A stretch of DNA of 64,000 bases, taken from positions 162,516 to 226,515 of the forward strand of contig CALVLA010000001.1 in the NCBI GenBank assembly GCA_944336125.1. The letters are read 5' to 3'. This DNA is from an uncultured Clostridia bacterium (lineage in GTDB: Bacteria > Bacillota > Clostridia > Christensenellales > CAG-314). Each line of letters opens with the position of its first letter. Within the stretch, counting starts at the first letter, position 1. This document shows, piece by piece, positions 8,501 through 51,997 of the stretch. The translations under genes and the position numbers were made by a program. The notes under the pieces are model-generated. The model saw only the letters and a program-made list of their open reading frames with translations. It did no database searches and was not told the origin of the DNA.

Positions 8501-8720
8501 TCATTATGCATGAGGTAAGCCTCGCAAAGGTCATTACGCGGGTGTTAAAACTGCCCCCCAATTCGTCGAGGATGCTAAGTTCGCTGGTCATGCTTGTGCG
8601 GTCGTTGGAAATAACAATGTGATGTTCGTCCAGTTTCCGAGGGTCGTTTTTTTTGAGGAGCCCTACAATACACTCGGATGCCGCAGCATAGTTGTTTGCC
8701 GCAAAAAGTTCAAGTTTCAT
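5583..8720 (-). CDS. addB: ATP-dependent helicase/nuclease subunit B
   Basis: SVTRLESFFRCPY, GKIDRID..VDYKTG, QLxxY and C-terminal CxxC..C Fe-S staple; overlaps addA; start set at ATG 8720. Confidence 0.9.
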   Translation of the reverse strand: MKLELFAANNYAAASECIVGLLKKNDPRKLDEHHIVISNDRTSMTSELSILDELGGSFNTRVMTFARLTSCIMKEKTFISKQSAIMLLGKIAEELKTQLKCYTKSFDTAGFAESIYETVSQLKYSAISPDEINPDEYEGNLKLKMQDIKIIYAAYENFIKDSYVDSGAKLNELIKHIPESDLIKNSYFYVKDFDSFSVQEALILRQLVIYSKGVTVALPFVRDNHVYSDENFSTIVNIAKGLDVDCKINFVRKNSSGFTSVIENYLFSYTLPEKPVETHDVTLNKASDVFDEVEKAACHIKKKIASGDRYKDFLVVSSDVTAYTYAVKSVFEKYDIPYFIDDKKPLADHVLARFLCDVMRVKTSGFLTENCFAVMKNVFYETEHDIFAFENFCLKNNVRFLNYPFDVSDEEDSEAERTRSEFVNFANSLDFSSAQSVEDFCAALTAFIKNEKTAATLQKVIDRQETLDHASYKVSLQAEEKLVEVIKTLADLFGNEKTTAEKFFDLFLSGVRAEKISIIPLYNDCVVVTSLAKSRANANKHLVVLGAGDGKFPAVKGDTKLIADGDIESLEKHGVLITPKIESENRREAFNVFQLLSMPRQSLYMSYVSSGESSAPCRAFEEIGQMFVFSSDENVEANVFSKKQAEEKLVEMSSAYMSGEKWLLPYLSTLYKAVGNENITEFLFTDDQKQPLSKGEEVLLPKGKTSVTRLESFFRCPYAYFLEHGLKLKERKEGQLKAVDTGNIIHEVLEKFVKKFVIGKNLDMDESKIAAEAAKLFDECVGKKEYAFLKKDAKLAFAVKSLKEEAKKVCVQIYRQFLNSCFKPEYAEYTFGFDGEGSVIDAYGKQIALVGKIDRIDVFDDKFVIVDYKTGKSEFSEKSVYAGQKLQLLTYVSQAKKLTGKRCAGFFYMPIRNNFSEKGEPKYRYVGRILDDGETIFQLDKEAEERGKSDLLSCSLTKSGKFNAQSSLPLSEEQIDVYLKYTSMLMKSAVKEMTCGFICQNPFGSVCKSCKFSSVCFKNDLSDVDEDSVGKITKQTLWEAVNEEV

Positions 8721-8864
8721 AAGACAAATTATAGCAAAGGCGCACGAGTTTGTAAACAACGGCTTGAAAAGGCTTAACGCCAAAACAAATTGTGGTAAAA
8801 ACGGTTTGAGTTTGCGGTTTTTTGTGATATAATAATCCGACCGAAACAAATCACGGAGAAAACT

Positions 8865-9869
8865 ATGAAAAAATTATTCAGTTTTGCAATACTCCTCGTA
8901 GCGCTTGTTTTTGCTTTTGCGGGCTGCTCCAACACCCCCGTTCCTTCCACTACCGAAAGATGGAACGCAGGTGAAACAAAACGCTATGAGATCAACCTTT
9001 TGACAAGCGACATGGCTCTTTCAAAGGGATTTAACGACCCTGAAACAAAACAAGGCGACTATTACGAATATCCTAAAAACGCCGGCGTACAGGTAAAACC
9101 AAACGACATCCTTGACGGCAGCTATATGGAATACACTATCAGCAAGGAAGGCTCCAACTGGGTTTTTGACCTTGAAATGACTGTAATTCAAAAATACGAA
9201 GCAGCCGAGTTTGTCGAAGGCTGGGAAGAAAAGATTCCTCAGGAAAACATCGTCAGCAAGGACTCCACTTTCGTAACTCTCAAATCGACAATGACAAGCA
9301 AAGCGGTTTTCGGCTCGATTAAAGACGGCGAAAGACCGGTGTCTTCCACAAAGACGGTAAACAGCGTAGTTGTGTTTTACAACAGCGACCTTAAAATCGA
9401 CGTTGACCACAACGATTTCACCACCACCGCAACGTATGACGAAAGCAGCGTAAAAAGCACTTTTACCGACAGAGCAGGTAACACGGGAAAACCATCCGAA
9501 GTAACCGTCAATACAGGCAGCGGCTTTATTTTCGACAACGAAGCAATGCTGCTCGCAATCCGTTCTGTCGACATGGTAACTTTGAAAGAAGCAGGAAGCA
9601 CTTCCCTCAACTTCTACAACGCGATTGAACAAAAGACTCAAAAAGTAACGGTTGCATACATTTCGGACAGCTTCACTTTCAACAACACTCAGGAAGACGC
9701 ACCTAAATACATGCGTGTCGGCTGCACACCTGAAGGAATGGGTTATCCTTACTACTTCTACTTCGAACAGCAGACAAAAATCGCTCCGCCTGTTCCTGGT
9801 GATATGATCAATCAGTATCAGCTTGTGGAAATGAATCAAGGCTACATGAATTTCAGCCTTGCCGCTTAA
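8865..9869 (+). CDS. Lipoprotein of unknown function
   Basis: Signal peptide MKKLFSFAILLVALVFAFAGC with lipobox; GGAG SD; promoter-like TATAAT upstream. Confidence 0.8.
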   Translation: MKKLFSFAILLVALVFAFAGCSNTPVPSTTERWNAGETKRYEINLLTSDMALSKGFNDPETKQGDYYEYPKNAGVQVKPNDILDGSYMEYTISKEGSNWVFDLEMTVIQKYEAAEFVEGWEEKIPQENIVSKDSTFVTLKSTMTSKAVFGSIKDGERPVSSTKTVNSVVVFYNSDLKIDVDHNDFTTTATYDESSVKSTFTDRAGNTGKPSEVTVNTGSGFIFDNEAMLLAIRSVDMVTLKEAGSTSLNFYNAIEQKTQKVTVAYISDSFTFNNTQEDAPKYMRVGCTPEGMGYPYYFYFEQQTKIAPPVPGDMINQYQLVEMNQGYMNFSLAA

Positions 9870-17237: not shown

Positions 17238-17497
17238 AAAAAGAAAAACGCCCCAAACGCAGGTTTGGGACGAATAAAAACATATCCGCGGTACCACCCA
17301 AATTGATACGCAAGCGTATCCGCTCTGAGGCTCACACAAGCCCAAGACATATTACGGTGTCAACCGGAGCGACTTACTAAGGTTCTGCCGCCCTGCTAAG
17401 AAAGGGATAAACTGTTTAAAGGGTAACCGACTCGCACCACCCGTCGGCTCTCTGACTGCCTGAAAAAAACAATCCGTGTCTTTCGTCAACGCATTTA
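17238..17497 (-). promoter_or_regulatory. T-box riboswitch (transcriptional); specifier possibly AUC (Ile)
   Basis: Minus strand reads GCGTTGACGAAAG (GA motif), AGAGA bulge, GGTGCGA apical loop, stem II with GAA/AGTA, T-box AATTTGGGTGGTACCGCG (17304-17287), then terminator CGTCCCAAAC-CTGC-GTTTGGGGCG-TTTTT. Confidence 0.92.
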
Positions 17498-17646
17498 GGG
17501 GTTTTCAAATTTAACGGAAGTATAACACAACGAAAATCAAAAGTAAAGGAAATTGAAGCATTTTTTGCAAAAGGAAAAAAGGCGTATTGTTGGCAAAACG
17601 CCAGAAAAATAAATAACCCCGACAAAAAGTGGCATACTGTCAACAT

Positions 17647-36439: not shown

Positions 36440-38734
36440 CTAGTTGAGTTTACTGTCTTTTTCGAATATCTGAGCCACAATCACAGTCATGTCGTCCTCG
36501 GGACAGCCGCCGTTTTTCTTGACCGCGTCCCCCAAGATAATGTCCGCCATTTCCTGCGGGGTTTTCATTATCTGGTCGCTTATCTCTATAGCGAGGTTTT
36601 CCTTTCCCCCAAAAGCGTCGGTAACGCCGTCGGAAGTCATTATCACCATGTCGCCGTCGGACAAGGCTTTTTTTGTTATGCAGGGTTTCATCTCTTCAAG
36701 CACCCCGAGCGGCAACGCCCCCGCCGACACAATTTCCACGTTGTCGCGGCTTTTCACAAATCCGCATGGCGCGCCTATTTTTATGAAGTCGCAAATGCCC
36801 TCCTCAAGGTTCATGACAGTTATGTCCACCGCCGTAAACACCTCTTCCTGCGACAGCGACAAAAGCTTGTTTACGCTTGTCAAAATGGTTTCGTTGTCAA
36901 ACCCCGCCTTGTAAAAGTTTTCGATAAGAGATATCGAAGTGGATGACGCCCTCTCGGCAACTTCGCCGCTTCCCATGCCGTCGCAAAGCCCCAGCAAAAA
37001 CCTCCTTTCGTCTATACGCAAAAAGGTGTGGGTGTCCCCCGAAACTTCGCTTCCGCTTTTTTTGATTCCGGAAAATCCGAAAATCACGTCGTACTTAGGC
37101 GCCTCGACAAATGTCAAAACAATCCAGTTTTTGTTGGGCGTCGCCTGCGTTTCGCAAAGCATCATTTTTTTGCCGCATACCTGCGATACGATTTCTCCCA
37201 CTTTTTCCTTTTTGCCGTCGTTTGTTTCCACCACCAGCGTAACGCTTTCTCTCTCGTCGTCTGCCGAAACAACCGCTTCCTTAATGAGAATTCCCTCGTA
37301 TGTCAGCTTTTCGAAAAGCAGCCGCTCCTTTTCGGTGTCAAACTTGGACTGCATTTTGGAAATTTCCGAAAGGTTTTTCATTATGTTTGAAACACCTGCC
37401 AGCTGCTCGCCTATGAGCAACCTGCTGTTGTCGTTGTTTGTAGTCACGGTGTAATAATGTTTGTACTGCTCGACGCTTTGGTTTACCGCCGAAAGCACCG
37501 CGTTAAGTCTTTTGCAACGTTGCGTCATAGAAGTCGGGAGGTCCAGAACTGTGGCTTTTCCCCTGTCCATCGCGCCGTCCATCATATTTATAAATGCGCT
37601 TTCCGTCTTTTCCATGTGAGTACGCCAGCAGACGTTTCTTTCCTGACAGTCGCGGCAGACGTTTTCGCTGACTTCGCGCGCAAGCATTATTTTGGCTTTG
37701 TCATGAGGCATAACGCCTTTTACCATGCTCAAAAAACTCAGCTTCATTTCAAAAAATATCTCGGACAAGTCGTAAAGCTTTCGCGACAAATCGGACTTGG
37801 TTCTGTTGACTATGCTTCTGACGGCATACTTTTCGCCGTTGCGCCCCATTTTGTCGCTCCACCTTTCGAGGTATGAAGCAGGAAGGCACAAAAACGCAAG
37901 GCAGCCCGAAATTACCGCCGCCGACGCGAGAACCGTGACGGAACTCACCTCAAAAAAATACTTCACGATAAAATCCGTCAAAGGCACCGACAAAACACAA
38001 AGCGGCTTTATGCTTTTGAAAGAAACCGCGGCAACCGCCCAAAGAGCAAAAACCGCAACGTCGGTAATGCTGCCGCTTCCGAAAGCGCTGCCGGCGCCCA
38101 AAAGCACCGACGTCATTATCGCGGTAAAGTCGCCGAATACGTAAAGGGATACAAGCATGGCAACAGGAGCCGCCAAACGCAATACGGGCAGTCCGTAAGG
38201 ATTTACGTTTGCCAGCCCCGTAGCCACACAAACTATAAAAACGGAAAGACAAATTTTCTCGTCGGTGTTAAGTTTATATTTAAGCCCCCTTATCACAACG
38301 CTTTTTATCGTAAAAAAGCTGACTGCGGCAAAGACAAAAGCCGCCAAAAAGGCAACAGCTTTTTTAATCGCGACTTCCGCCGCCGCCGTTTCATACACCA
38401 AAAAGAAAATCTGCCCCAAAAACAACAAGGCGAAAAAAAGCTTTTTCGTTGCTTTTTTCTTCGCAAGCCTTACGCCAAAAACCAAAAGGTCAACGACGGC
38501 AAGCGACACTATCGTCCAGAAAAACAGCGTTCTGCCGCAAAAAGTTCCGCTTAGCCCGTACGCAAGCGAAGCAGGCAAAAGCCCCGCTCCGCAAAAAAGC
38601 GACGAAACAAAAAAGCCGAAACACAATGCAAAGGAAAAATACTCCGACTCAACAAACCGTAGCGCCGAAAGCACCGCCGCTACCGCCAAAAACTTTAAAA
38701 ATTTTTTTCGGATATTATTGTTAAAAAAAGACAT
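36440..38734 (-). CDS. spoIIE: Stage II sporulation protein E (membrane PP2C phosphatase)
   Basis: N-terminal TM region, CxxCxxxxxCW, VSGD, CDGMGSG, TSDGV and DDMTV motifs; synteny with tilS-hpt. Confidence 0.9.
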   Translation of the reverse strand: MSFFNNNIRKKFLKFLAVAAVLSALRFVESEYFSFALCFGFFVSSLFCGAGLLPASLAYGLSGTFCGRTLFFWTIVSLAVVDLLVFGVRLAKKKATKKLFFALLFLGQIFFLVYETAAAEVAIKKAVAFLAAFVFAAVSFFTIKSVVIRGLKYKLNTDEKICLSVFIVCVATGLANVNPYGLPVLRLAAPVAMLVSLYVFGDFTAIMTSVLLGAGSAFGSGSITDVAVFALWAVAAVSFKSIKPLCVLSVPLTDFIVKYFFEVSSVTVLASAAVISGCLAFLCLPASYLERWSDKMGRNGEKYAVRSIVNRTKSDLSRKLYDLSEIFFEMKLSFLSMVKGVMPHDKAKIMLAREVSENVCRDCQERNVCWRTHMEKTESAFINMMDGAMDRGKATVLDLPTSMTQRCKRLNAVLSAVNQSVEQYKHYYTVTTNNDNSRLLIGEQLAGVSNIMKNLSEISKMQSKFDTEKERLLFEKLTYEGILIKEAVVSADDERESVTLVVETNDGKKEKVGEIVSQVCGKKMMLCETQATPNKNWIVLTFVEAPKYDVIFGFSGIKKSGSEVSGDTHTFLRIDERRFLLGLCDGMGSGEVAERASSTSISLIENFYKAGFDNETILTSVNKLLSLSQEEVFTAVDITVMNLEEGICDFIKIGAPCGFVKSRDNVEIVSAGALPLGVLEEMKPCITKKALSDGDMVIMTSDGVTDAFGGKENLAIEISDQIMKTPQEMADIILGDAVKKNGGCPEDDMTVIVAQIFEKDSKLN

Positions 38735-38890: not shown

Positions 38891-38967
<77 letters not shown>

Positions 38968-38977
38968 TTATGAATAT

Positions 38978-39055
38978 GGCGGCGTAGCTTAGTTGGTCTA
39001 TAGCGGCCGGTTCATACCCGGCAGGTCGTTGGTTCGAATCCGACCGCCGCTACCA
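38978..39055 (+). tRNA. tRNA-Met (CAT), elongator
   Basis: GGCGGCGTAGC..GCCGG-TTCATAC-CCGGC..TTCGAAT..CGCCGCTACCA. Confidence 0.88.
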
Positions 39056-39061
39056 AAGCAA

Positions 39062-39136
39062 GGCCCCTTGGTCAAGCGGTCAAGACATCGCCCTTTCACG
39101 GCGGTAACGCGAGTTCGATTCTCGCAGGGGTCACCA
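39062..39136 (+). tRNA. tRNA-Glu (TTC)
   Basis: GGCCCCTTGGTCAAG..CTTTCAC loop..TTCGATT..GGGGTCACCA. Confidence 0.95.
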
Positions 39137-39139
39137 AAT

Positions 39140-39215
39140 GGGGAGTTAGCTCAGCTGGGAGAGCATCTGCCTTACAAGCAGGGGGTCACAGGTTCGAGCC
39201 CTGTACTCCCCACCA
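39140..39215 (+). tRNA. tRNA-Val (TAC)
   Basis: GGGGAGTTAGCTCAG..CTTACAA loop..TTCGAGC..ACTCCCCACCA. Confidence 0.95.
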
Positions 39216-39609: not shown

Positions 39610-41583
39610 ATGAAAAACTTGCGATGCTATTATTCTGCTGATATTGAAAAATTTTTGCAAACATCAAACAATGAAATTTTAGGAACGATTATATCAAACG
39701 ATAGTTTTTCTGAAATAAAGCTTACCCAAAACAGCACCTGGCAATATGAAATAGAAATTTTAAAAGAACAACTATCTGCATTAAATAATGCTAGAATTAT
39801 ATTTGAATATACTATTCCACGAATGGGCAAACGCGTTGATGTTGTAATACTTTACCAAAACATTGTTTTTTTGTTGGAATTTAAATGCGGAGATAATGCT
39901 TACAAACAAAGTTATATCGATCAAGTACTTGACTATGCTTTGGATTTGCAAAACTTCCAAAAACACAGTCACGATAAATTAATTATTCCAATTGTTGTCG
40001 TTACAGAAGCAAGCAAAAAGAGTTTTTGCACCAACATAAAAGATAATATTGCAGATCCCCTTTTGTGCAATAAGAATAACATAATAGAAGCTATAAAACA
40101 TGTTTGCTTGAGCTATACTCCCGATCCCTTTGACTATCAGGAATGGGAAAACTCAGAATATTTGCCCACCCCCACCATTATTGAAGCCGCACAAGCACTT
40201 TACAGGGGACATAATGTCCACGAAATCACACGTAGCGATGCAGGCGCAAAAAACCTGAGTAAGACGACAGCCGCAATCAACAAAATAATAGAACAGAGTA
40301 AACTTCAAAGGAAAAAAAGTATTTGTTTTATTACAGGTGTACCTGGTGCCGGAAAAACTTTGGTTGGTCTTAATCTGGCTATCGAGCACGCAAATGCAAA
40401 AGATGGCGAACATGCTGCATTTTTGTCAGGAAATCAACCATTAGTTAATGTGTTGCAAGAAGCTCTTGCTCGAGATAAAGTCAAAAATTTACAATTAAAT
40501 GGAATAAGAATAAGCAAAGCTGATGCTTTAAGGGAAACAAGCTCTTTCATTCAAATTATCCATAAATATCGCGATAGTTTTGTTAATAATGAAAATATTC
40601 CGCCAGAAAAAGTCGTTATTTTTGACGAAGCCCAGCGTGCATGGACAAAAGATTACATTCAAAAGTTCATGCAGAAAAAGAAGGGAGTTAATAACTTTGA
40701 TTTTAGCGAACCTGAATTTTTAATAAGCACAATGGACAGACAAAAGGACTGGGCTGTAATTGTTTGTCTTATAGGCGGAGGCCAAGAGATAAATTCAGGT
40801 GAAGCGGGGCTTCCTGAATGGTTTGATTCTTTGCGCCGCAGTTTTAAAGATTGGCACGTATTTGTCACACCTCAGTTAAATGATGAAGAATATAAACGAA
40901 ATAAAGACTGGAATTCTCTTTTAGAAGGATTACAAATTACAGAAAATCCTGATTTACATTTAGCCACTTCCGTGCGCTCTTTTAGAACCCCTGATCTTGC
41001 TGAATTTGTAAAAGCTCTATTAGATAACGAATTTGATTTAGCAAAGAAACTTTATCAAAAAATAAAAGATAAATACCCTATTTTTCTCACAAGGGACTTA
41101 AAAAAAGCAAAAGAATGGGTTAAAAGTAAATCCCGCGGAACGGCAAGATATGGTCTTTTAGCAAGCAGCGGAGCACTTAGATTAAAACCAGACGGAATTT
41201 TTGTTAAAAATGACATTTCCGTGGCCAATTGGTTTTTAAATGATAAAACCGATGTTCGTTCGAGTTATTATTTGGAAGATGTAGTAAGCGAATTTGATGT
41301 TCAAGGATTAGAACTTGATTTTACTGTCGTAGCCTGGGACGCTGATTTTCGTATGCAAAATGGTAGCTGGACCTACAATGAATTTCGCGGAAACAAATGG
41401 TGTAAAATAGCATCAGACGAAAACAAAATGTATCTTAAAAACGCATATCGCGTTTTGCTGACGCGTGCTCGGCAAGGCATGGCCATTTTTATACCAAAAG
41501 GCGACGAAAGTGACAACACGCGCTTACAACCTTTTTATGACAGCACTTACAATTTTTTAAACGCCATACTGGAAAACAACTAA
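39610..41583 (+). CDS. DUF2075 / Schlafen group 3-like helicase with N-terminal PD-(D/E)xK nuclease-like domain
   Basis: EYTIPRMGKRVDVV..LLEFK, Walker A GVPGAGKT, DEAQRAW, QGLELD and YRVLLTRARQG motifs; visibly more AT-rich than neighbours. Confidence 0.85.
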   Translation: MKNLRCYYSADIEKFLQTSNNEILGTIISNDSFSEIKLTQNSTWQYEIEILKEQLSALNNARIIFEYTIPRMGKRVDVVILYQNIVFLLEFKCGDNAYKQSYIDQVLDYALDLQNFQKHSHDKLIIPIVVVTEASKKSFCTNIKDNIADPLLCNKNNIIEAIKHVCLSYTPDPFDYQEWENSEYLPTPTIIEAAQALYRGHNVHEITRSDAGAKNLSKTTAAINKIIEQSKLQRKKSICFITGVPGAGKTLVGLNLAIEHANAKDGEHAAFLSGNQPLVNVLQEALARDKVKNLQLNGIRISKADALRETSSFIQIIHKYRDSFVNNENIPPEKVVIFDEAQRAWTKDYIQKFMQKKKGVNNFDFSEPEFLISTMDRQKDWAVIVCLIGGGQEINSGEAGLPEWFDSLRRSFKDWHVFVTPQLNDEEYKRNKDWNSLLEGLQITENPDLHLATSVRSFRTPDLAEFVKALLDNEFDLAKKLYQKIKDKYPIFLTRDLKKAKEWVKSKSRGTARYGLLASSGALRLKPDGIFVKNDISVANWFLNDKTDVRSSYYLEDVVSEFDVQGLELDFTVVAWDADFRMQNGSWTYNEFRGNKWCKIASDENKMYLKNAYRVLLTRARQGMAIFIPKGDESDNTRLQPFYDSTYNFLNAILENN

Positions 41584-43410: not shown

Positions 43411-43662
43411 TTATTTCTTTTTGATCAACGTAAAGGTATTGTTTTCAACTTGGTATGCTTCGGAAAACTCGATGTTTTTTTCCGCAAGCGTTTGTTCCGC
43501 CTTGTCAACGTTTTCAGGCGAAACCGCAAGACACAGTCCGCAGCCTGCCCTTATGGCATTTGGTACGGGTCTCACTTTGACGGCTATTTTTGCAGACAGC
43601 AAGGCCTGTTCGCCGGCAATGACGGCATGAGTGTTCGGAAACGTATAAAAAATTTCAATCAT
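43411..43662 (-). CDS. DUF3343 domain protein (putative Se/S carrier-like)
   Basis: TFPNTHAVI..PVPNAIRAGCGLC; start ATG 43662 overlaps the yedF stop. Confidence 0.8.
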   Translation of the reverse strand: MIEIFYTFPNTHAVIAGEQALLSAKIAVKVRPVPNAIRAGCGLCLAVSPENVDKAEQTLAEKNIEFSEAYQVENNTFTLIKKK

Positions 43663-44279
43663 CAGATGTTGATTACCTTTTGCGCGCCGTCCATAAATTC
43701 GACGATATCGTACATGTTTGCGATTTCGCCGACGGCTACTTTGTCTTTTACGTTGAAGAAGTCGACGCAAGTGCCGCAAACGCGAATTTGAGTACCTTTT
43801 TCCTGCAAGGATTTGAGGTCGTCGAGAGTGTTTGCGCCTTCGAGAGCGAGGTTTACGCCGGAGTTGAAAAAGAGAACTGCCTTAGGCGGAACTTCAAGCT
43901 GAGCCAGCGAGAAGATAAATCCTTTGATGAGGATTTTGCCGAGGTCGTCGCTTCCCTTTCCCATTTTGTCCTGACTGATAGCCACCACAAGGCCTTCGCC
44001 TCTGACCATAGCCGCAGGAGTAGCCTGAGGAGCTTGAGCTTCAGCAGTAACCTGACCTTCGCCCACGGTAACGGTAACTTCATACTGTTTGTCGGCAACT
44101 TTAACCACGTCGCATTTGAGGCCTTTTTTGTCAGCCATTTTGCCGAGGTTTTCGCAAGCGATGGCGTTGTCGACAAGCACTTTGATAACTCCGCCTTCAG
44201 GAGGAAGTTTTTCGATTTCTTTTTTTGTTTTAATTACAGGAACGGGACAAAGCAATCCCATGCAATCGATAACAATCAT
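43662..44279 (-). CDS. yedF: Selenium metabolism protein YedF (SirA/TusA domain plus DsrE-like domain)
   Basis: IDCMGLLCPVPVI, VDN..ENL, MGKGSDDLGKIL, FFNSGV, CGTC and NMYDI motifs. Confidence 0.88.
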   Translation of the reverse strand: MIVIDCMGLLCPVPVIKTKKEIEKLPPEGGVIKVLVDNAIACENLGKMADKKGLKCDVVKVADKQYEVTVTVGEGQVTAEAQAPQATPAAMVRGEGLVVAISQDKMGKGSDDLGKILIKGFIFSLAQLEVPPKAVLFFNSGVNLALEGANTLDDLKSLQEKGTQIRVCGTCVDFFNVKDKVAVGEIANMYDIVEFMDGAQKVINI

Positions 44280-45400
44280 AACAGTATCCCCTTTTTTAAA
44301 ATTTCTTTAACGCCGTCAACGGCGGTAAGTACATCGTTTTGAGTGTTGAAGTGTGAGAAAGAAAACCTCACGGCTCCTCTGTTTTGCGTGCCCAAAGTTT
44401 TGTGCATAAGCGGTGCGCAGTGAGCTCCTGCCCTGACGGCAATCGAGTAGTGTTCGTAAAGGAAGTTTGCCACGTCGCCGCTGTCGAAGTCCTTGATGTT
44501 TAGCGACGCCACCGGAGTGCGAAGTTTCGCGTCAATGTCTCCGTAAAGTGTTACGCCGTCAAGTCCCCTTACTTCCTGAATAAACATACGCGCGAGCTTG
44601 TCCGCCTCCGAAAAAGCTTTGCCTTCGAGTGAGGTAACGTAATTTATGCCTGCGAGAAGCCCCGCTATGCCGTGAGCGTTTTGAGTACCCGCTTCCAATG
44701 CGTCGGGCATTTCGGACGGATGGGTCGGCGAAAATGATTCGCTGCCGCTGCCACCCACTACGAGAGGCTGAGGCTGAAAACCGTTTTGCAGAAGTATTCC
44801 CCCCGTTCCCTGCGGACCGTAAAGCGACTTGTGCCCGCTGAAACAAACTGCCGACAAAAAGATTTTTTTAACGTCTATCGGAATAAGCCCCGCAGTCTGC
44901 GCTGCGTCGAGCATGAATTTTAAATTGTGCTTGCGGCAAATTTCACCTACCGCAAAAATGTCAAATACGTTTCCCGTGAGGTTGGACGCATGACACATCA
45001 CAACCGCCTCGGTATCGCTTTTGATTGCTTTTTCGATATCGCTTGCGTCAAGCCTTCCCTTTTCGTCGAGAGAAACAACGGTGTAATTTCCCCTTCTGAA
45101 AACGGGACGCAAAACGCTGTTGTGTTCCGCCGCCGTAATTATGACGTGACCTTTGAGGGAGGAAATCGCAATGTTGAGTGCCGCAGTCGCGTTTTGAGTG
45201 AAAGCGACGTTCAAAGGATTGTCTGAATTGAAAAGGTCCGCCACTGCCATGCGCGCCCTCAAAAGACATCTCAGTCCGTTGAGAGAGGCGTCGTATGAGC
45301 CTCGCGAGGGGTTGCCGCAACTATTTAAAGCGTCACATACCGCTTTGACGACTTCGTCGGGTTTTGGCAAAGTGGTAGCGGCATTGTCGAGATATATCAT
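44276..45400 (-). CDS. Cysteine desulfurase / selenocysteine lyase family (class V PLP enzyme)
   Basis: YLDNAATT, EHNSV, HASN, DAAQ, SGHKSLYGP and RAGAHCA motifs. Confidence 0.9.
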   Translation of the reverse strand: MIYLDNAATTLPKPDEVVKAVCDALNSCGNPSRGSYDASLNGLRCLLRARMAVADLFNSDNPLNVAFTQNATAALNIAISSLKGHVIITAAEHNSVLRPVFRRGNYTVVSLDEKGRLDASDIEKAIKSDTEAVVMCHASNLTGNVFDIFAVGEICRKHNLKFMLDAAQTAGLIPIDVKKIFLSAVCFSGHKSLYGPQGTGGILLQNGFQPQPLVVGGSGSESFSPTHPSEMPDALEAGTQNAHGIAGLLAGINYVTSLEGKAFSEADKLARMFIQEVRGLDGVTLYGDIDAKLRTPVASLNIKDFDSGDVANFLYEHYSIAVRAGAHCAPLMHKTLGTQNRGAVRFSFSHFNTQNDVLTAVDGVKEILKKGILL

Positions 45401-45585
45401 AAAAAGCACCCTTAATCTAAAAATCTTCGTTAACATTATACAACATTATTTTCAAAAAGCAACAAAATATAAATCTCAAAGAGGCAAAAGACGGCTTAAT
45501 CCTTGAAAAGGCCGAAAAACTATGTTAAACTAATATTCAGCAAAATTCTGAAAAACTGTTGCCTTTGGCAATCGGAGGAAGACAT

Positions 45586-46980
45586 ATGAGCAAGCAGGAA
45601 GCATTGAGGTCGATGCCCCGCGTCGACGACGTAATAGCAAGAGTAGAAGCAGAGCCAAAAGCCAAAAACATTTCGTATCACGAGCTTTTGAGCTGCGTCA
45701 GGGAGACGCTTGACGGCATAAGGAAAGACATTTTGGCGGACAAAACCGACAAAGTGCCTGACGTTTCGGAAATAGTAAAGGCGGTAATCAAAACCGCGGT
45801 TAAAAAATGTTCGTTTAGTTTAAGACCTGTAATAAACGCGACCGGCGTAGTGCTGCACACCAATTTGGGAAGAGCGGTACTTGCCGAAGCGGCTGCGGAA
45901 AACGTGAGTCAGGTAGCGAGAGAATACAACTCTCTCGAATACTCGCTTGAAGAGGGCTGCCGCGGAAGCAGACATTCGCACGTCGAATCGCTCATCTGCA
46001 AACTGACGGGAGCGGAAGCGGCAATGGTTGTAAACAACAACGCGGCTGCCGTAATGCTTTTGCTTGCGGCGATGTGCAAGGACAGAGAAGTCGTGGTGTC
46101 ACGAGGCGAACTGGTTGAAATAGGCGGTTCCTTCCGCGTGCCTGAAATCATGAGCATGAGCGGCGCGCACCTTAAAGAGGTAGGCACTACCAACAAAACC
46201 AAACCGTCCGACTATGCCGAAGCGATTAACGAAAACACTGCGGCTCTTTTGAAGGTACACACCAGCAACTTTAAAATCGTAGGTTTTTCCGAACAGGTAA
46301 AAATCGACGAAATGGTAAAAATAGGTCACGACCATAACATACCCGTTATTTACGACGTAGGCAGCGGACTTATGGTTGAAGGCGAAAAAGTAGGTCTTTA
46401 CGACGAAGTGGGCGTCAAGGAAAGCGTAAAAGCAGGCGCGGACATCACGTGTTTTTCCGCCGACAAGCTTTTGGGCGGACCTCAGGCAGGTATAATCGTC
46501 GGCAAAAAGAAATACGTCGAAATGATGAAAAAGCATCAGCTGGCAAGGGTAGTCAGGATAGACAAACTCAATCTTGCCGCACTTGAAGCGACAATACGAA
46601 TTTATCTGGACCCTGAAAGGACCTTTAAGGAAATCCCTACCCTTTCCAACCTCGCGATAACAAAAGCCGAACTCAAAATCAAGGCAAACAAACTTTGCGG
46701 ACTTTTGCCTGTACGCAAAAACAGTTTTTCGGCAACGGTAAAAACAAGCGAATCGCAGGTAGGCGGCGGTTCTGCGCCGGGTGAAATGCTCCCTTCCTAC
46801 GCTGTGCAGATTACCCCAAAAACTATGTCGGCGGCAGATCTCGAAAAAGCTCTCCGCGAAAACGAAGTGCCTATCATATGCCGTATCCACAAAGGCTGCG
46901 TTTTGCTTGACCCTCGCACTATTTTCGAAAATCAGTACGCCGAAATAGTAAGAGCCTTTGAAAACATTTTTGCGGAATAA
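45586..46980 (+). CDS. selA: L-seryl-tRNA(Sec) selenium transferase
   Basis: VINATGVVLHTNLGRA, VVNNNAAA, SRGELVEIGGSFR, EVGTTNKT, PLP-Lys SADKLLGGPQAG and VGGGSAP; GGAGG SD. Confidence 0.95.
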   Translation: MSKQEALRSMPRVDDVIARVEAEPKAKNISYHELLSCVRETLDGIRKDILADKTDKVPDVSEIVKAVIKTAVKKCSFSLRPVINATGVVLHTNLGRAVLAEAAAENVSQVAREYNSLEYSLEEGCRGSRHSHVESLICKLTGAEAAMVVNNNAAAVMLLLAAMCKDREVVVSRGELVEIGGSFRVPEIMSMSGAHLKEVGTTNKTKPSDYAEAINENTAALLKVHTSNFKIVGFSEQVKIDEMVKIGHDHNIPVIYDVGSGLMVEGEKVGLYDEVGVKESVKAGADITCFSADKLLGGPQAGIIVGKKKYVEMMKKHQLARVVRIDKLNLAALEATIRIYLDPERTFKEIPTLSNLAITKAELKIKANKLCGLLPVRKNSFSATVKTSESQVGGGSAPGEMLPSYAVQITPKTMSAADLEKALRENEVPIICRIHKGCVLLDPRTIFENQYAEIVRAFENIFAE

Positions 46981-47058
46981 AAAATGTCAAAACAAAAGGC
47001 CGCCTTTCAAAGGCGGTTTTTTTTTGTCAAAATATTGCCGAAAATGCTTTTTTTAAGC

Positions 47059-47087
47059 TTGATAAATTTTAAGATACGTGATAAAAT
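47059..47087 (+). promoter_or_regulatory. SigA promoter of the tRNA-Sec-like gene
   Basis: TTGATA-17-TAAAAT with extended TG. Confidence 0.75.
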
Positions 47088-47103
47088 ATATAGGCTAATC
47101 CAT

Positions 47104-47199
47104 GGGAATGGATGGGTGCTGGTGTACCCTCCGGCTTTAAAACCGGTATGGGAAGTTAGGAGCTGCCTGGGTGGGTTCGATTCCCACACGTTCCCGCCA
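47104..47199 (+). tRNA. selC: tRNA-Sec-type tRNA with non-canonical anticodon arm (loop CUUUAAAA, UUA at the anticodon position)
   Basis: 96 nt; 6-bp D stem GGGTGC/GTACCC with TGGT loop, long variable arm, GTGGG-TTCGATT-CCCAC T arm, extended acceptor stem, G73-CCA; directly downstream of selA. Confidence 0.9.
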
Positions 47200-47202
47200 T
47201 TT

Positions 47203-47228
47203 GAACCGAATTTTCGGTTCTTTTTTTT
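47203..47228 (+). terminator. Intrinsic terminator of selC
   Basis: GAACCGAA-TT-TTCGGTTC followed by T8. Confidence 0.8.
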
Positions 47229-47249
47229 CGTCCTCGACGGGCGTTTGCC

Positions 47250-47523
47250 TTGCAAAAAAAGCCCGTTTCTATTATAATATTACGTAATATTACGAAAGGT
47301 AACATTTTGCGACGGAATTTTCAGCTCCTGTTTCGTCTCAATGCCGCCCGACGCTCCTTATCGGGCGCGAAAAAACCGATTCCGACACTTGTCGACGCTC
47401 CTGTTTCGGTATACCTTGTCAAAATGAAATATCTCCCTGTCGGTTTGTCGCACTCGGACTCTCCTACCCGGCAGGCTTTACATATACGAAAACGCAATTT
47501 TGCAATATTTTGGGGAGAGTTTT
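47250..47523 (+). promoter_or_regulatory. Promoter, palindromic operator and ~240-nt structured leader of the yedE-sirA-DUF3343-selD operon
   Basis: TTGCAA-17-TATAAT; 18-bp perfect palindrome 47275-47292; five CTCC(T) motifs, several in hairpin loops. Confidence 0.65.
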
Positions 47524-48585
47524 ATGAAAAACTTCATAGTAAAAAATTACAAGTACTTCCTTGCCGGCATCATCATCGGTTTGGTGGCGTTGGCTTTGAC
47601 CTTGATGGGAAACCCGCAAAACATGGGCTTTTGCATCGCTTGCTTTTTGAGAGACATCGCGGGCAGCACGGGTATGCACTCGGCGGCAATCGTACAGTAT
47701 TTCCGTCCTGAAATCGTAGGTATCGTACTCGGCGCCTTTGTGATTTCCGTCATCCGCAAGGACTTCAAACCTACCGGCGGTTCCGCTCCCGTAACACGTT
47801 TTGTTCTCGGCGTAGCGGTTATGGTAGGCGCGCTTATCTTCCTCGGTTGCCCTCTGCGTATGGTACTTCGTATCGGCGGCGGCGACATGAACGCTGTTAT
47901 CGGTCTTTTGGGCTTCATCGCAGGTATCGGCGTTGGCGCAATCTTTTTGAACAAAGGTTTCACCCTCAAACGCTCGTACGACCTTCCTTTGCTTGAAGGC
48001 GCAATAGCACCTGCATCGTCGGCTTTCCTTTTCATCTTGTTTTTGGCAGCGCCTTTCCTTTTCGTGTTCAGCGAATCGGGTCCAGGCTCCATGCACGCTC
48101 CGATCTGGGCTGCTCTCATCGGCGGTCTTATCGTAGGTATCGTGGGTCAGCGTCTGCGCGTTTGCTTCGTAGGCGGTATCCGTGACTCCATCATGTTCAG
48201 ACAGTTCCAGATGATTTATCCTTTCATCATGGTCATCGTAACTATGATTATCGGAAACCTCATCAACGGTACTTTCAACTTCGGTTTTGAAAATCAGCCT
48301 GTCGCTCACACCGACTGGTTGTGGAACTTCCTCGGCTTGTTTATCGTAGGCTGGGGCTCCACCTTCCTCGGCGGCTGCCCGTTCAGACAACTCGTTCTCG
48401 CGGGAAGCGGAAACAGCGACTCTACAATCACAGTTATCGGTATGATAGTAGGTGCGGCAATGGCTCACAACTTCGGGCTTGCCTCCTCTGCTGCGGGAGT
48501 TACCACAAACGGCATGATTGCCGGCGGTATCTGCATCGCAGTTATACTTATCATCGGTTTGCTTAACCGCAAAAAGGTCGCATAA
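47524..48585 (+). CDS. yedE: YedE-family putative selenium transporter
   Basis: GNPQNMGFCIACFLRD, YFRPE, FLGCPLR, PGSMHAP, NQPVAH and GGCPFRQ motifs; polytopic. Confidence 0.9.
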   Translation: MKNFIVKNYKYFLAGIIIGLVALALTLMGNPQNMGFCIACFLRDIAGSTGMHSAAIVQYFRPEIVGIVLGAFVISVIRKDFKPTGGSAPVTRFVLGVAVMVGALIFLGCPLRMVLRIGGGDMNAVIGLLGFIAGIGVGAIFLNKGFTLKRSYDLPLLEGAIAPASSAFLFILFLAAPFLFVFSESGPGSMHAPIWAALIGGLIVGIVGQRLRVCFVGGIRDSIMFRQFQMIYPFIMVIVTMIIGNLINGTFNFGFENQPVAHTDWLWNFLGLFIVGWGSTFLGGCPFRQLVLAGSGNSDSTITVIGMIVGAAMAHNFGLASSAAGVTTNGMIAGGICIAVILIIGLLNRKKVA

Positions 48586-48596
48586 AAAAGGAGGAA

Positions 48597-48818
48597 ATGA
48601 CAATGATGAAAATAGACGCACGCGGACTCAGCTGTCCGGAACCGTTGCTTATGCTTAAAAACGGGCTTAAAAAGAACAAGGAAAACGAAGAAGTCGAATT
48701 GGTACTCAGCTGCCAAAACGCTTTGGAAAACTGTACCAGATACGCCGAAGGACAGGGATACAAAGTTACCCTGGAAAAAGACGGCGAAGACTACAAACTT
48801 TTGATGAAAAAGGACTAA
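48597..48818 (+). CDS. SirA/TusA-like sulfur/selenium transferase
   Basis: IDARGLSCPEP motif, 73 aa, AGGAGG SD. Confidence 0.88.
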   Translation: MTMMKIDARGLSCPEPLLMLKNGLKKNKENEEVELVLSCQNALENCTRYAEGQGYKVTLEKDGEDYKLLMKKD

Positions 48819-49074: not shown

Positions 49075-49111
49075 TCCGTTTTTGCTTTATTTATTATTAA
49101 AGGAGAAAGAA

Positions 49112-50140
49112 ATGGATATAAAAAAGATTATGAAACTGCCTGCATGCGGCGGCTGCATGGCAAAACTTCCGCCGGGAATGCTTAAAGACGTCGTATCGCA
49201 GATTCCTGTGTTTAACGATCCAAACCTGCTTGTCGGATTTGACACTTCCGACGACGGAGCGGTATACAAATTGAGCGACGACATTGCAATCATTCAGACG
49301 CTGGACTTTTTCACCCCTATGGTAGAAGACCCTTACACCTTCGGCAAAATCGCGGCGGCAAACGCATTGAGCGACGTATATGCCATGGGCGGCAGAGTTG
49401 CGGTAGCCCTCAACATCGTGTGCTTCCCTGAGGAAGACGACCCTGCGGTACTCGCCTCGATACTTCGCGGCGGCGCGGAAAAGGTTATGGAAGCGGGCGG
49501 CGTGCTTTGCGGCGGCCACTCGATAAACGACAGGGAATGCAAATACGGCTTGTCGGTAACGGGCGTTGTTCATCCGGACAAGTACCTCAGAAACAACACC
49601 TGCAAAAAAGGCGACGTCATCATTTTGACAAAACCTTTGGGTGTCGGTATGATTATGGCTTCCTATCGTTACGGCGAAGTTGCCGAGGAAGATTATCAAC
49701 AGGCACTTAAAAGCATGCAGACTCTCAACAAGTACGCTTTTGAGGCTGCAAGCAAGTTCCACCTTCACGCAGGCACCGACGTAACGGGCTTCGGATTTTT
49801 GGGACACCTCAACGAGATGACAAACGACGACTATACGATAGCGGTGGAAAGCAAAGGCGTCAAATACATTCCGGGCGCGCTGAAACTTGCTCAGGAATTT
49901 TTGACAACGGGCGGCGGACAAAAGAACAGGAACTTCCTGAAAGGAAAAGTCAGGTTCCAAAACGTTCCCGACGCCATGCAGGAAGTATTGCTCGACCCTC
50001 AGACATCGGGCGGCATGCTTTTGAGCGTACCGGCAAACGAGGCGAAAGAACTCATGAAAGAACTCAACGACCTCGAGCTGCCGTCATGCATTATCGGCGA
50101 AGTTCAGGAAAGACAGGACGCCAACATCATAGTTTACTAA
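49112..50140 (+). CDS. selD: Selenide, water dikinase (Cys-type)
   Basis: CGGCMAK (both codons TGC), SDDGAV, QTLDFFTP, ANALSDVYAMGG, GGHS, TDVTGFG and DPQTSGG motifs; AAGGAG SD. Confidence 0.95.
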   Translation: MDIKKIMKLPACGGCMAKLPPGMLKDVVSQIPVFNDPNLLVGFDTSDDGAVYKLSDDIAIIQTLDFFTPMVEDPYTFGKIAAANALSDVYAMGGRVAVALNIVCFPEEDDPAVLASILRGGAEKVMEAGGVLCGGHSINDRECKYGLSVTGVVHPDKYLRNNTCKKGDVIILTKPLGVGMIMASYRYGEVAEEDYQQALKSMQTLNKYAFEAASKFHLHAGTDVTGFGFLGHLNEMTNDDYTIAVESKGVKYIPGALKLAQEFLTTGGGQKNRNFLKGKVRFQNVPDAMQEVLLDPQTSGGMLLSVPANEAKELMKELNDLELPSCIIGEVQERQDANIIVY

Positions 50141-50185: not shown

Positions 50186-51319
50186 ATGATTTATTTAGAT
50201 AACGGAAGCACGTCCTTTCCCAAAGCGGAAGGGATGAGCGAATTTGTAAAAAAATTTTTGGACGAAAGGTGTTTCAACATAAACCGCGGAGCCTACTCCT
50301 CCTCTACCGACACTTCGGAGCTTGTTTACGACACACGTGAAAAAGCCGCGGAATTTTTCGGCGGAGAAAAGGGCAAAAAAGTGATATTCACAAGCGGAGT
50401 CACATTTTCGCTTAATCTTGTTTTAAACGGTCTTTTGGGTAACGGCGACAAAGCGGTAACCACTTATATGGAACATAACGCGGTGCTTCGCCCTCTTTCG
50501 AAACTGACCAAGCAAGGTACGGAGGTAAACTTCGTCAACTGTGACGGAAACGGCGAAATAGATTTGAACGACCTTGAAGAAAAACTCAGACAAAACCCGA
50601 AAGTATGTGTGGTCACCCACGCCTCAAACGTGTGCGGCACAATTATGCCCATTAAGGAAATAGGCGCACTGTGCAGACGCTACGGCGTAATTTTCGTTGT
50701 GGACGCGGCGCAGACGGCAGGCGTCGTCGACATCGACATGAGCCGCGACAACATCGACGTTTTGTGTTTTACGGGACACAAAGGACTACTTGGCATGCAG
50801 GGAATAGGCGGAGTGATTTTCGGCGGCGACACCGCGGAAATTTGTTCCCCTTTCTGCTACGGCGGAACAGGCAGCTTTTCGCACACAACCGAAATGCCAA
50901 AAATACTTCCCGACAAGTTCGAGGCAGGCACACTTAACCTTCCGGGAATAGCGTCGTTAAACTACTGCTTCGATTTTCTCAAACAAAAAGGCATACAAAA
51001 TATTTTTGCCCACGAAAAGAAACTTCAGGCACTTTTCGAAGAGGGCGTCAAGCAGCTTAATAACGTCGAAATCATCGGCGGAAAAGCCAAAAACCGCTGC
51101 GCCGTAACTTCGCTTGACTTCAAAAACGTCGACAACGGCGAGGCGTCGTTTGTGCTTGACACAGAGTACTCGATTATGACGCGAAGCGGACTTCACTGCG
51201 CCCCTTACGCTCACAAAACGCTAGGTACTTTCCCACGGGGAACGGTACGCTTTGCCTTCGGCTACAAAACCACCGAGGAGGAAGTCAAAAAGGCAATACA
51301 AGCCGTCGCAAAAATTTAA
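50186..51319 (+). CDS. Cysteine desulfurase / selenocysteine lyase family (class V PLP enzyme), second paralog
   Basis: YLDNGSTS, EHNAV, HASNV, DAAQ, TGHKGLLG and RSGLHCA motifs. Confidence 0.9.
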   Translation: MIYLDNGSTSFPKAEGMSEFVKKFLDERCFNINRGAYSSSTDTSELVYDTREKAAEFFGGEKGKKVIFTSGVTFSLNLVLNGLLGNGDKAVTTYMEHNAVLRPLSKLTKQGTEVNFVNCDGNGEIDLNDLEEKLRQNPKVCVVTHASNVCGTIMPIKEIGALCRRYGVIFVVDAAQTAGVVDIDMSRDNIDVLCFTGHKGLLGMQGIGGVIFGGDTAEICSPFCYGGTGSFSHTTEMPKILPDKFEAGTLNLPGIASLNYCFDFLKQKGIQNIFAHEKKLQALFEEGVKQLNNVEIIGGKAKNRCAVTSLDFKNVDNGEASFVLDTEYSIMTRSGLHCAPYAHKTLGTFPRGTVRFAFGYKTTEEEVKKAIQAVAKI

Positions 51320-51424
51320 AAGTTTTTAAACCCGCGCAAGCGGGTTTTTTTTCACAGCAATTTCGAAAAAAACATAACATACATTGTGCGGATACAACGG
51401 GTACATATTGACAAGGAGGTATAT

Positions 51425-51997
51425 ATGCGAATTTACACAATTTCAATATGTTGTCCGCCATGCAAGCCGCGGTGCTGTCCTCCGCCTTGCAGACCGCGCT
51501 GCCGAATGAGGTACTGCGAATTTTTTACCGACAGACCATGCGGCAGATATTACGCGATTCCGCAAGGATATACGGGATACGTTCCGTCACCCATGACTCC
51601 GCGCGCAAGCGGAATAACAACAAGCTATTCCCCGTCGCAAAACGTTGCGGCGGGCAACAACTTTTTGTTGGGAACAACCGTCAACAGCTTCGGCAGTTCA
51701 CTGGCTTTAAACGTCCCCTTTCAACGAATTTCCGTTTTGAAAAGCGGCTACTACAGAGTAACATATTCTTTTCAGGTTACCTCCCCCGTCGCGGGAACTC
51801 TTTCCACAATGATTGCGGGAATGCCTGAAACGAAAATATTCAGTTTTCCGCCGCAGAATGCGCCGTACAGGGTTTTTGCCTCGTACACCGTATATCTGAC
51901 TCAAGGCAGCCAACTCGCCTTACAGCTCATTACAGCGCCCGACGGCAGTTCCGTCACCGCTTCGCAGTTTAATTTTTCAGTTAAGGAACTGTTATAA
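51425..51997 (+). CDS. Cys/Pro-rich putative spore coat/exosporium protein with BclA-CTD-like beta domain
   Basis: N-terminal CCPPCKPRCCPPPCRPRC; C-terminal SGYYRVTYSF..LTQGSQLALQ; AGGAGG SD; SigK-like ACA-16-CATAACAT at 51354-51380. Confidence 0.65.
   Translation: MRIYTISICCPPCKPRCCPPPCRPRCRMRYCEFFTDRPCGRYYAIPQGYTGYVPSPMTPRASGITTSYSPSQNVAAGNNFLLGTTVNSFGSSLALNVPFQRISVLKSGYYRVTYSFQVTSPVAGTLSTMIAGMPETKIFSFPPQNAPYRVFASYTVYLTQGSQLALQLITAPDGSSVTASQFNFSVKELL

Follow-up and report, generated by a model that had tools for sequence, protein, structure and literature searches.

A tRNA-Sec-derived gene with a degenerate anticodon arm beside selA in a genus of uncultured Clostridia

Staphylococcal cell-wall tRNA-Gly is an aminoacyl-tRNA used off the ribosome, which keeps its anticodon and has a known transferase, and transfer-messenger RNA (tmRNA) carries an anticodon-less tRNA-like domain that still enters the ribosome. 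For selenocysteine (Sec), the available text of PMC7609411 states that none of the pathway enzymes, i.e., seryl-tRNA synthetase (SerRS), SelA and SelD, reads the anticodon arm, and mentions natural tRNA-Sec variants with non-UCA anticodons (citing Mukai et al. 2016). The selC* tRNA-Cys and the allo-tRNAs function in translation, some of them with a dedicated SelB* or CysRS*, in genomes holding a complete selABCD set (excerpted sections of PMC5389517). In Helicobacter pylori, the orphan SelA no longer has the N-terminal domain that binds tRNA, and the genome has also lost selB, selC and selD (excerpts of Cravedi et al. 2015, PMC4607533). A 64,000-nt stretch of an uncultured Clostridia genome (contig CALVLA010000001.1, positions 162,516 to 226,515; hereafter the window, numbered from its first letter) harbors, downstream of selA, a further kind of tRNA-Sec-type gene. 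This gene, designated selC* (47104-47199, plus strand), encodes an RNA derived from tRNA-Sec, whose body is intact and whose anticodon arm is non-decoding.

selC* is probably a non-decoding tRNA-Sec derivative, selected as an RNA handle for the off-ribosome synthesis of Sec by SerRS and SelA. The initial annotation, made from the letters of the window, had already preferred a non-decoding scaffold to a recoding tRNA, and this preference was supported by the variable anticodon loops, the compensated RNA body and the missing selB in all five genomes of the genus.

The selC* gene and its transcription signals

The 96-nt Sec-specific tRNA body initially placed right after selA (45559-46980, plus strand) was recovered both by sequence reading and by the Rfam model RF01852, and starts after a gap of 123 nt. 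The model aligned to positions 47104-47195 with 58.7 bits (gathering score, 47 bits; model positions 1-91; E 2.4e-9 in the window search), and no other match above cut-off was obtained in the 1.24-Mb genome (20 contigs, 43.6% G+C, 94.6% complete). ARAGORN made no call for selC* and, this program being blind to the gene, the analysis relied on the Rfam model and on hand inspection; the cloverleaf arms were confirmed by the sequence, a consensus fold and pair counts. The acceptor stem is composed of seven standard pairs and a G.A eighth pair, followed by G73 and an encoded CCA. The D arm has a 6-bp stem with a UGGU loop, the variable arm is long, and the T arm has a 5-bp stem with a UUCGAUU loop. 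These are the structural features expected from a tRNA-Sec, i.e., an 8-bp acceptor stem and a 5-bp T stem (13 bp), a 6-bp D stem with a 4-nt loop, a long variable arm and G73. The G.A pair and other body features were also present in canonical relatives with a UCA anticodon, and thus do not represent damage.

The tRNA-Sec feature that selC* lacks is a 7-nt UCA (or otherwise decoding) loop on a 5-6-bp stem. At 47131-47146 (plus strand), sequence reading and Rfam alignment displayed instead a degenerate arm made of a 4-bp stem (CCGG/CCGG) and an 8-nt loop (CUUUAAAA); the sole deletion and all low-confidence columns of the RF01852 alignment fell within this arm. Compared to the canonical arm of the relative G032 (CCGGU/CUUCAAA/ACCGG), one stem base is missing and C35 is replaced by U, turning UCA into UUA as first described. 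An assembly error, which the initial annotation had asked to exclude, was ruled out by a contig with an identical RNA from a DNA run of a different study, and by the further-reduced arms of four other genomes of the genus. This contig spans 46735-47600 with 20 substitutions and several indels, none of the 20 substitutions being inside selC*.

The stretch was found in public runs of 10 studies, mostly of bird or chicken gut. In one run, a loose contig end at 47154 matched the 3' half of the RNA and carried the canonical CUUCAAA loop in its 5' part, so that sample holds a second organism whose tRNA-Sec is ordinary but almost identical to selC* in its 3' half. Two open reading frames (ORFs) overlapping selC* (46984-47277, plus strand; 47007-47255, minus strand) were without family support and considered as spurious.

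The own promoter and terminator initially attributed to selC* were both found by scan. The promoter (47059-47087, plus strand) is of the sigma-70 type (TTGATA-17-TAAAAT, 10 of 12 matches) and extended by a TG before the -10 box, and the intrinsic terminator (47203-47228, plus strand; hairpin at 47203-47220) has seven pairs, a 4-nt loop and a T8 tail. selA has a terminator of its own at 47000-47025 (plus strand), a GC-rich hairpin with a T-run recognised by sequence reading; partial terminator-like Rfam matches begin at 47000, and the scan lists the hairpin on the opposite strand. Read by eye, -35/-10-like pairs with 16-17-nt spacing occurred upstream of selC* in all five genomes of the genus, and a hairpin with a T-run occurred downstream in four of them, the fifth, G003, having a more distant hairpin. 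Among the contigs assembled from RNA libraries, one covered 46940-47155 and others covered selA, yedE and the carrier genes in part.

Anticodon arm, RNA body and decoding machinery across the genus

The genus was represented by five draft assemblies (94-95% complete, 1.2-1.6 Mb), namely the genome of the window (G000) and G001 to G004. Within the taxonomic family, selA was detected in 6 of 82 genomes, i.e., the five of the genus and G019, from another genus. In all five genomes of the genus, selA was directly followed by a selC*-type RNA.

Comparing selC beside orthologous selA genes, as proposed in the initial annotation, yielded a variable loop on a conserved body, the outcome named there for a scaffold. 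The five genomes displayed five different anticodon arms and four different loops: CCGG/CUUUAAAA/CCGG in G000, UCGG/GCAA/CCGA in G003, CAGG/CUUG/CCUG in G002, UCUG/CUUG/CAGA in G004 and UCUGU/UUU/ACAGA in G001. Loop length was 8 nt in G000 and 3-4 nt in the other four genomes, whose RNAs have no anticodon loop at all. GCAA and CUUG are tetraloops of classically stable types, namely GNRA and CUUG. The 8-nt loop of G000 is the least altered state and visibly ancestral; if it is primitive, at least two loop-shrinking events likely occurred.

The rest of the RNA showed the opposite trend, in line with the initial statement that damage was confined to the decoding arm. Over the acceptor, D, variable and T arms (24 pairs in five genomes), all 120 cells were standard pairs, and eight of the 24 pairs (15 cells) were altered on both sides within the genus. 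Slid pairings reached at most 64% paired cells and two both-side pairs, and none of 500 shuffles attained the observed values. Body identity within the genus ranged from 71 to 99%, although the synonymous sites of selA are saturated or nearly so. G001 and G004 form the closest pair (dS 0.98); their RNA bodies differed at 1 of 77 columns, by a pair-preserving G-to-A change, and anticodon arms were identical at 11 of 14 columns (MAFFT alignment). All five genomes have G73, a CCA encoded in the gene and full pairing of the acceptor stem, these features being either invariant or compensated. A pattern scan of metagenomes with a variable-arm/T-arm motif provided one contig, whose RNA was the same as in G002, and no new variant.

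The synthesis enzymes were preserved too. In the window, selA encodes an L-seryl-tRNA(Sec) selenium transferase of full length, in which the N-terminal region that binds tRNA is present (TIGR00474, 598.9 bits, covering positions 1-454 of the 455 in the profile), and the gene was open and full length in the five genomes (567.6-601.2 bits, from profile position 1 to 451-454). The protein aligned with A. aeolicus SelA (3W1H) over residues 16-468, from the N-terminal region on, with intact NTNLGRA, DKLLGGPQAG and AR..RIDKL motifs, which we take to hold the pyridoxal phosphate (PLP) lysine and the phosphate-binding arginines. A search with SelA as query gave only a Fervidicella record (53% identity), used as canonical outgroup. 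The dN/dS of selA was 0.11 in the least saturated pair of the genus, saturation of synonymous sites leaving few pairs usable for this ratio, and selD was 83-87% identical across the genus. The RNA body is under purifying selection, as are selA and selD.

These patterns bear on a first alternative, a relic in decay, where selC and selA would be neutral leftovers after the loss of selB and selenoproteins and the anticodon arm would be the first damage. The decoding parts are really lost, selC* is beyond recognition by ARAGORN, and RF01852 scores decrease from 65.7-73.1 bits in canonical relatives (all 11 genomes of the order with selA outside the genus) to 58.7 bits in G000, 49.2 in G002 and 48.0 in G003, with G001 and G004 under the thresholds used. 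However, damage is limited to a single arm, and the 24 other pairs are kept in five of five genomes, eight of them through compensatory changes. selA has remained open and full length with a dN/dS of about 0.1 at dS of at least 1, selD is conserved to the extent given above, and promoter-like sites (five of five) and terminator-like hairpins read by eye flank the RNA. Moreover, reduced genomes of only 1.2-1.6 Mb would as a rule be expected to shed genes that they do not use. Broken stems, lost transcription signals and decaying partner genes, which define a pseudogene, were not displayed by selC* (100% pairing, selA dN/dS 0.11). Decay thus appears unlikely.

The genome scan for selB suggested by the initial annotation (TIGR00475) gave no match reaching cut-off in any genome of the genus (G000 to G004), the weak matches in G000 being EF-Tu, TypA, LepA and Der. 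Canonical relatives display the gene order selA-selB-selC; as selA and the RNA are only 123 nt apart here on one contig, selB has been lost from the position that it normally occupies. Outside the genus, selB accompanied selA in 145 of 145 selA-positive genomes (11 of the order, 54 of the class and the first 80 of a phylum sample of 274), counting one class-sample genome, 71% complete, whose selB scored 238.7 bits, just below cut-off. The UCA loop was read directly in the two aligned relatives, G019 and G032.

In these two relatives, grdA with one in-frame TGA lies amid glycine-reductase genes just upstream of selABC. G019 and G032 served as positive controls of the PF04723 search, the first control genomes having been silent; GrdA was not found in the four genus genomes searched (G000 to G003), where no exhaustive scan for SECIS elements or selenoproteins was made. 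SelD of the window has a Cys in its N-terminal motif (CGGC-x-AK), which aligns with an in-frame TGA codon in G032 (CGGU-AAK). The G032 SelD (7992-9068, minus strand of its locus) is itself a selenoprotein, which plain ORF calling truncates to 284 aa.

A second alternative, put forward in the initial annotation and disfavored by the present data, is that the 8-nt loop decodes UAA (anticodon UUA) or a four-base codon and inserts Sec. The loop does retain the ancestral context C-U-U-x-A-A-A, UUA is complementary to UAA, and natural non-UCA tRNA-Sec species have been reported (available text of PMC7609411, citing Mukai 2016). Yet the 789 long ORFs terminated with TAA (436), TGA (321) or TAG (32), and since all three codons end long ORFs, no stop codon is reassigned; TAA also ends selA. 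Outside selC*, no tRNA with a stop-reading UCA or UUA anticodon was called in the genome. Recoding is left unsupported because SelB is missing, because TAA is the commonest ordinary stop, and because the acceptor stem keeps its EF-Tu-averse 8 bp (about 100-fold weaker binding in the available text of PMC7609411). Furthermore, the anticodon stem is down to 4 bp, the four congeners share the gene set and have no anticodon loop at all, GrdA was not found and SelD is of the Cys form. Insertion of Sec at UAA or at a four-base codon is accordingly very improbable.

Selenium supply and the proposed fate of Sec

In the favored reading as a biosynthetic handle, the promoter of selC* would drive its transcription, and the transcript would mature in the manner of a tRNA. 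SerRS, which reads the long variable arm along with the acceptor stem and G73 but not the anticodon, would charge it with serine. SelA would then convert Ser-tRNA* to Sec-tRNA*, binding to the T loop as well as to the D arm of 6 bp and the acceptor stem of 8 bp. Selenophosphate from the neighboring SelD would be the selenium donor, and SelD itself would be supplied by YedE, YedF and the TusA-like, Se/S-carrier and NifS-like proteins of the locus. The Sec product would stay off the ribosome and be used or released there; without SelB and without a usable anticodon (3-4-nt caps in four sister species), it could not reach the ribosome. Historically, an ancestor with a normal Sec system (glycine reductase, Sec-containing SelD) would have lost selB and its selenoproteins and retained SelD, SelA and the tRNA body. 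The anticodon arm, freed from constraint because SerRS, SelA and SelD do not read it (available text of PMC7609411), would then have turned into short capped hairpins. Because RNA body, selA and selD are under purifying selection, we infer that Sec-tRNA* is still made and used off the ribosome. Charging, conversion to Sec and an off-ribosome fate are predicted from the sequence patterns, as are the scaffold role and the permanent exclusion from the ribosome.

The genes surrounding selC* formed a selenium island. Downstream, on the plus strand, were found a YedE family putative selenium transporter (47500-48585; TIGR04112, 482.9 bits, cut-off 200; Pfam Sulf_transp), a small TusA/YedF-N-like sulfur/selenium carrier (48597-48818; Pfam TusA, 66.8 bits) and a putative Se/S carrier protein of PF11823 (48823-49074; Pfam Se_S_carrier, 51.6 bits). 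They were followed by the Cys-form selenide water dikinase gene selD (49082-50140; TIGR00476, 372.8 bits) and by the second of two NifS/SclA-like cysteine desulfurase family proteins (50186-51319; TIGR01977, 438.4 bits; SclA model, 403 bits, sub-cut-off). On the minus strand, divergent from selA, lie the first NifS/SclA-like protein (44276-45436; TIGR01977, 377.1 bits, cut-off 377; SclA model, 290 bits, sub-cut-off) and YedF, a sulfurtransferase-like selenium metabolism protein with TusA and DsrE-like parts (43662-44279; TIGR03527, 211.9 bits, cut-off 110; Pfam TusA and DsrE). yedF was syntenic in G001, G002 and G003. An antisense ORF at 47464-48621 (minus strand), longer than yedE, had no family match and is taken as spurious. 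Such long antisense ORFs (385-544 aa) overlapped real genes, yedE here and the NifS-like gene and yedF in G002, and mislead gene calling by the longest ORF.

Several of these families leave room for a different chemistry on the same scaffold, in which SelA would make Cys from a sulfur donor (a tRNA-dependent cysteine route) or stop at the dehydroalanyl intermediate. Most flanking families (TusA, DsrE, Sulf_transp, cysteine desulfurase) are ambiguous between sulfur and selenium, and E. coli SelA can use thiophosphate in vitro. However, the neighbors reach the selenium-specific equivalogs YedE (TIGR04112), YedF (TIGR03527) and SelD (TIGR00476), the SelA motifs aligned with the A. aeolicus enzyme are unchanged, and relatives that decode Sec in the ordinary way have these supply genes as well. 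Another product than Sec is hence rather improbable.

Candidate users of the product were searched among known families. SelU, YqeB and MoCoBD_1 (molybdenum hydroxylases) had no matches in the 94.6%-complete genome, and as these other selenophosphate consumers were not found, the one use that can be recognised for the selenium supply chain is SelA acting on selC*. A role of the flanking NifS-like and YedF proteins as a genus-specific consumer of Sec-tRNA* was considered and rejected, since ordinary Sec-decoding relatives have these families too, and they are better seen as supply genes.

A last alternative is that the RNA is never aminoacylated and acts as a structural or regulatory partner, for instance one that stabilises or regulates the SelA decamer, or one that senses selenium status. 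Only the body recognised by SelA is conserved, and searches for aminoacyl-group users (FemAB, L/F-transferase and LanB-type families) found none, both as such a partner would predict. Nevertheless, the charging features (G73, encoded CCA, paired acceptor stem) are held in five of five genomes and the catalytic motifs of SelA are kept, which makes an uncharged RNA a poor candidate, on a par with the altered chemistry.

A number of points weigh against selC* as a handle for Sec synthesis. The five drafts belong to one genus and are not independent samples, and the SelA tree (eight rows) resolved only G001 with G004, so the number of independent loop reductions is uncertain. The flanking genes are not genus-specific and are silent on a new use, YedF being present in 7 of the 11 canonical Sec-decoding relatives of the order and the NifS-like family TIGR01977 in 10 of 11. 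Among possible consumers, FemAB (PF02388) and L/F-transferase (PF03588) had no match in G000, nor did the LanB-type family (PF04738), for which control genomes were also silent. The RNA-library contigs are no proof that selC* is transcribed, DNA carry-over being possible, and give neither ends nor strand. Finally, processing, charging and conversion of selC* are argued purely by comparison.

On balance, the chances are about even that the genus has a fourth, translation-independent use of selenium, in which Sec would be built on a tRNA handle that has shed its anticodon and be passed off the ribosome to some acceptor, or freed. selC* would then be the first tRNA in nature that selection maintains solely as a scaffold for biosynthesis, and the repeated exchange of its anticodon loop for stable tetraloops would reflect selection against entry into the ribosome. 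In the literature searched, no tRNA-Sec without anticodon loop and no selA, selC and selD system without selB was described; Supplementary Table S1 of Peng et al. 2016 (PMC5029168), which according to the available part of that article covers organisms with SelA homologs but incomplete traits, may bear on this novelty.

If the handle role is true, the link to decoding, by which tRNA-dependent amino-acid synthesis is usually accounted for, can be cut, and a tRNA body alone is a useful handle. For selenium biology, the genus would point to an undescribed fate of Sec or selenium in gut anaerobes and offer a natural system in which to seek it. For enzymology, it would be a natural deletion experiment on the needs of SerRS and SelA, the anticodon loop being dispensable in five variants. 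As for annotation, ARAGORN misses the gene, and this genus would be wrongly assigned a Sec trait if selA and selD were the only criterion.

Regulation of the supply genes may involve a promoter-like site ahead of yedE (TTGCAA-17-TATAAT, found by scan; 47250-47292 with the putative operator, plus strand). Its -10 box is overlapped by a perfect 18-bp palindrome at 47275-47292 (halves TAATATTAC and GTAATATTA), which may be the operator for a repressor of the yedE-tusA-carrier-selD operon. G001 and G004 contain a TTTATTTGACACTTT-like motif, repeated several times in the interval from the selC* terminator to the gene that follows; these copies could form an array of regulator-binding sites.

Elsewhere in the window, a T-box leader (RF00230, 106 bits; 17263-17498, minus strand) was consistent with a Firmicute-type organism, and the presence of SpoIIE (36440-38734, minus strand) indicates a spore-former. 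A tRNA cluster Met-Met-Glu-Val (38891-39215, plus strand) precedes the gene of a protein of 657 aa (39610-41583, plus strand) that has a DNA/RNA helicase domain of Schlafen group 3 (PF09848, 276.5 bits). Just past the selenium island, a 203-aa ORF (51386-51997, plus strand) gave a weak sub-threshold match to the BclA C-terminal domain (22.6 bits, cut-off 38).

Comparison with described systems

The closest system is the canonical selC of selA-selB-selC/selD loci, as in G019 and G032. It shares with selC* the Rfam family, the 8/5 acceptor and T arms, the 6-bp D stem with UGGU, the long variable arm, G73 and CCA, as well as the place downstream of selA and the SelA, SelD, YedE/YedF and NifS-like partners. 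In contrast to it, the selC* genus has no 7-nt UCA loop, selB is deleted between selA and selC, GrdA was not found and SelD is of the Cys form.

Natural non-UCA tRNA-Sec variants and selC* both rest on pathway enzymes that do not bind the anticodon arm. The variants of Mukai and colleagues reportedly have a normal 7-nt loop, keep SelB and decode, whereas the selC* genus lacks SelB and has a loop of 8 nt (one species) or 3-4 nt (four species). For cell-wall tRNA-Gly and tmRNA, the likeness is in function: they are, as proposed for selC*, charged tRNA-shaped RNAs whose job is not ordinary codon reading. They differ from selC* in that no transferase was found for it among the families searched, and in that its entry into the ribosome looks impossible.

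The selC* tRNA-Cys and allo-tRNAs, as presented in the excerpted sections of PMC5389517, resemble the present RNA by a tRNA-Sec-like body recruited beyond standard Sec insertion; unlike those translating RNAs, the present one cannot pair with a codon. Unlike the orphan SelA of H. pylori, the genus keeps the N-terminal region of SelA (profile position 1 in five of five genomes), together with the tRNA body and selD.

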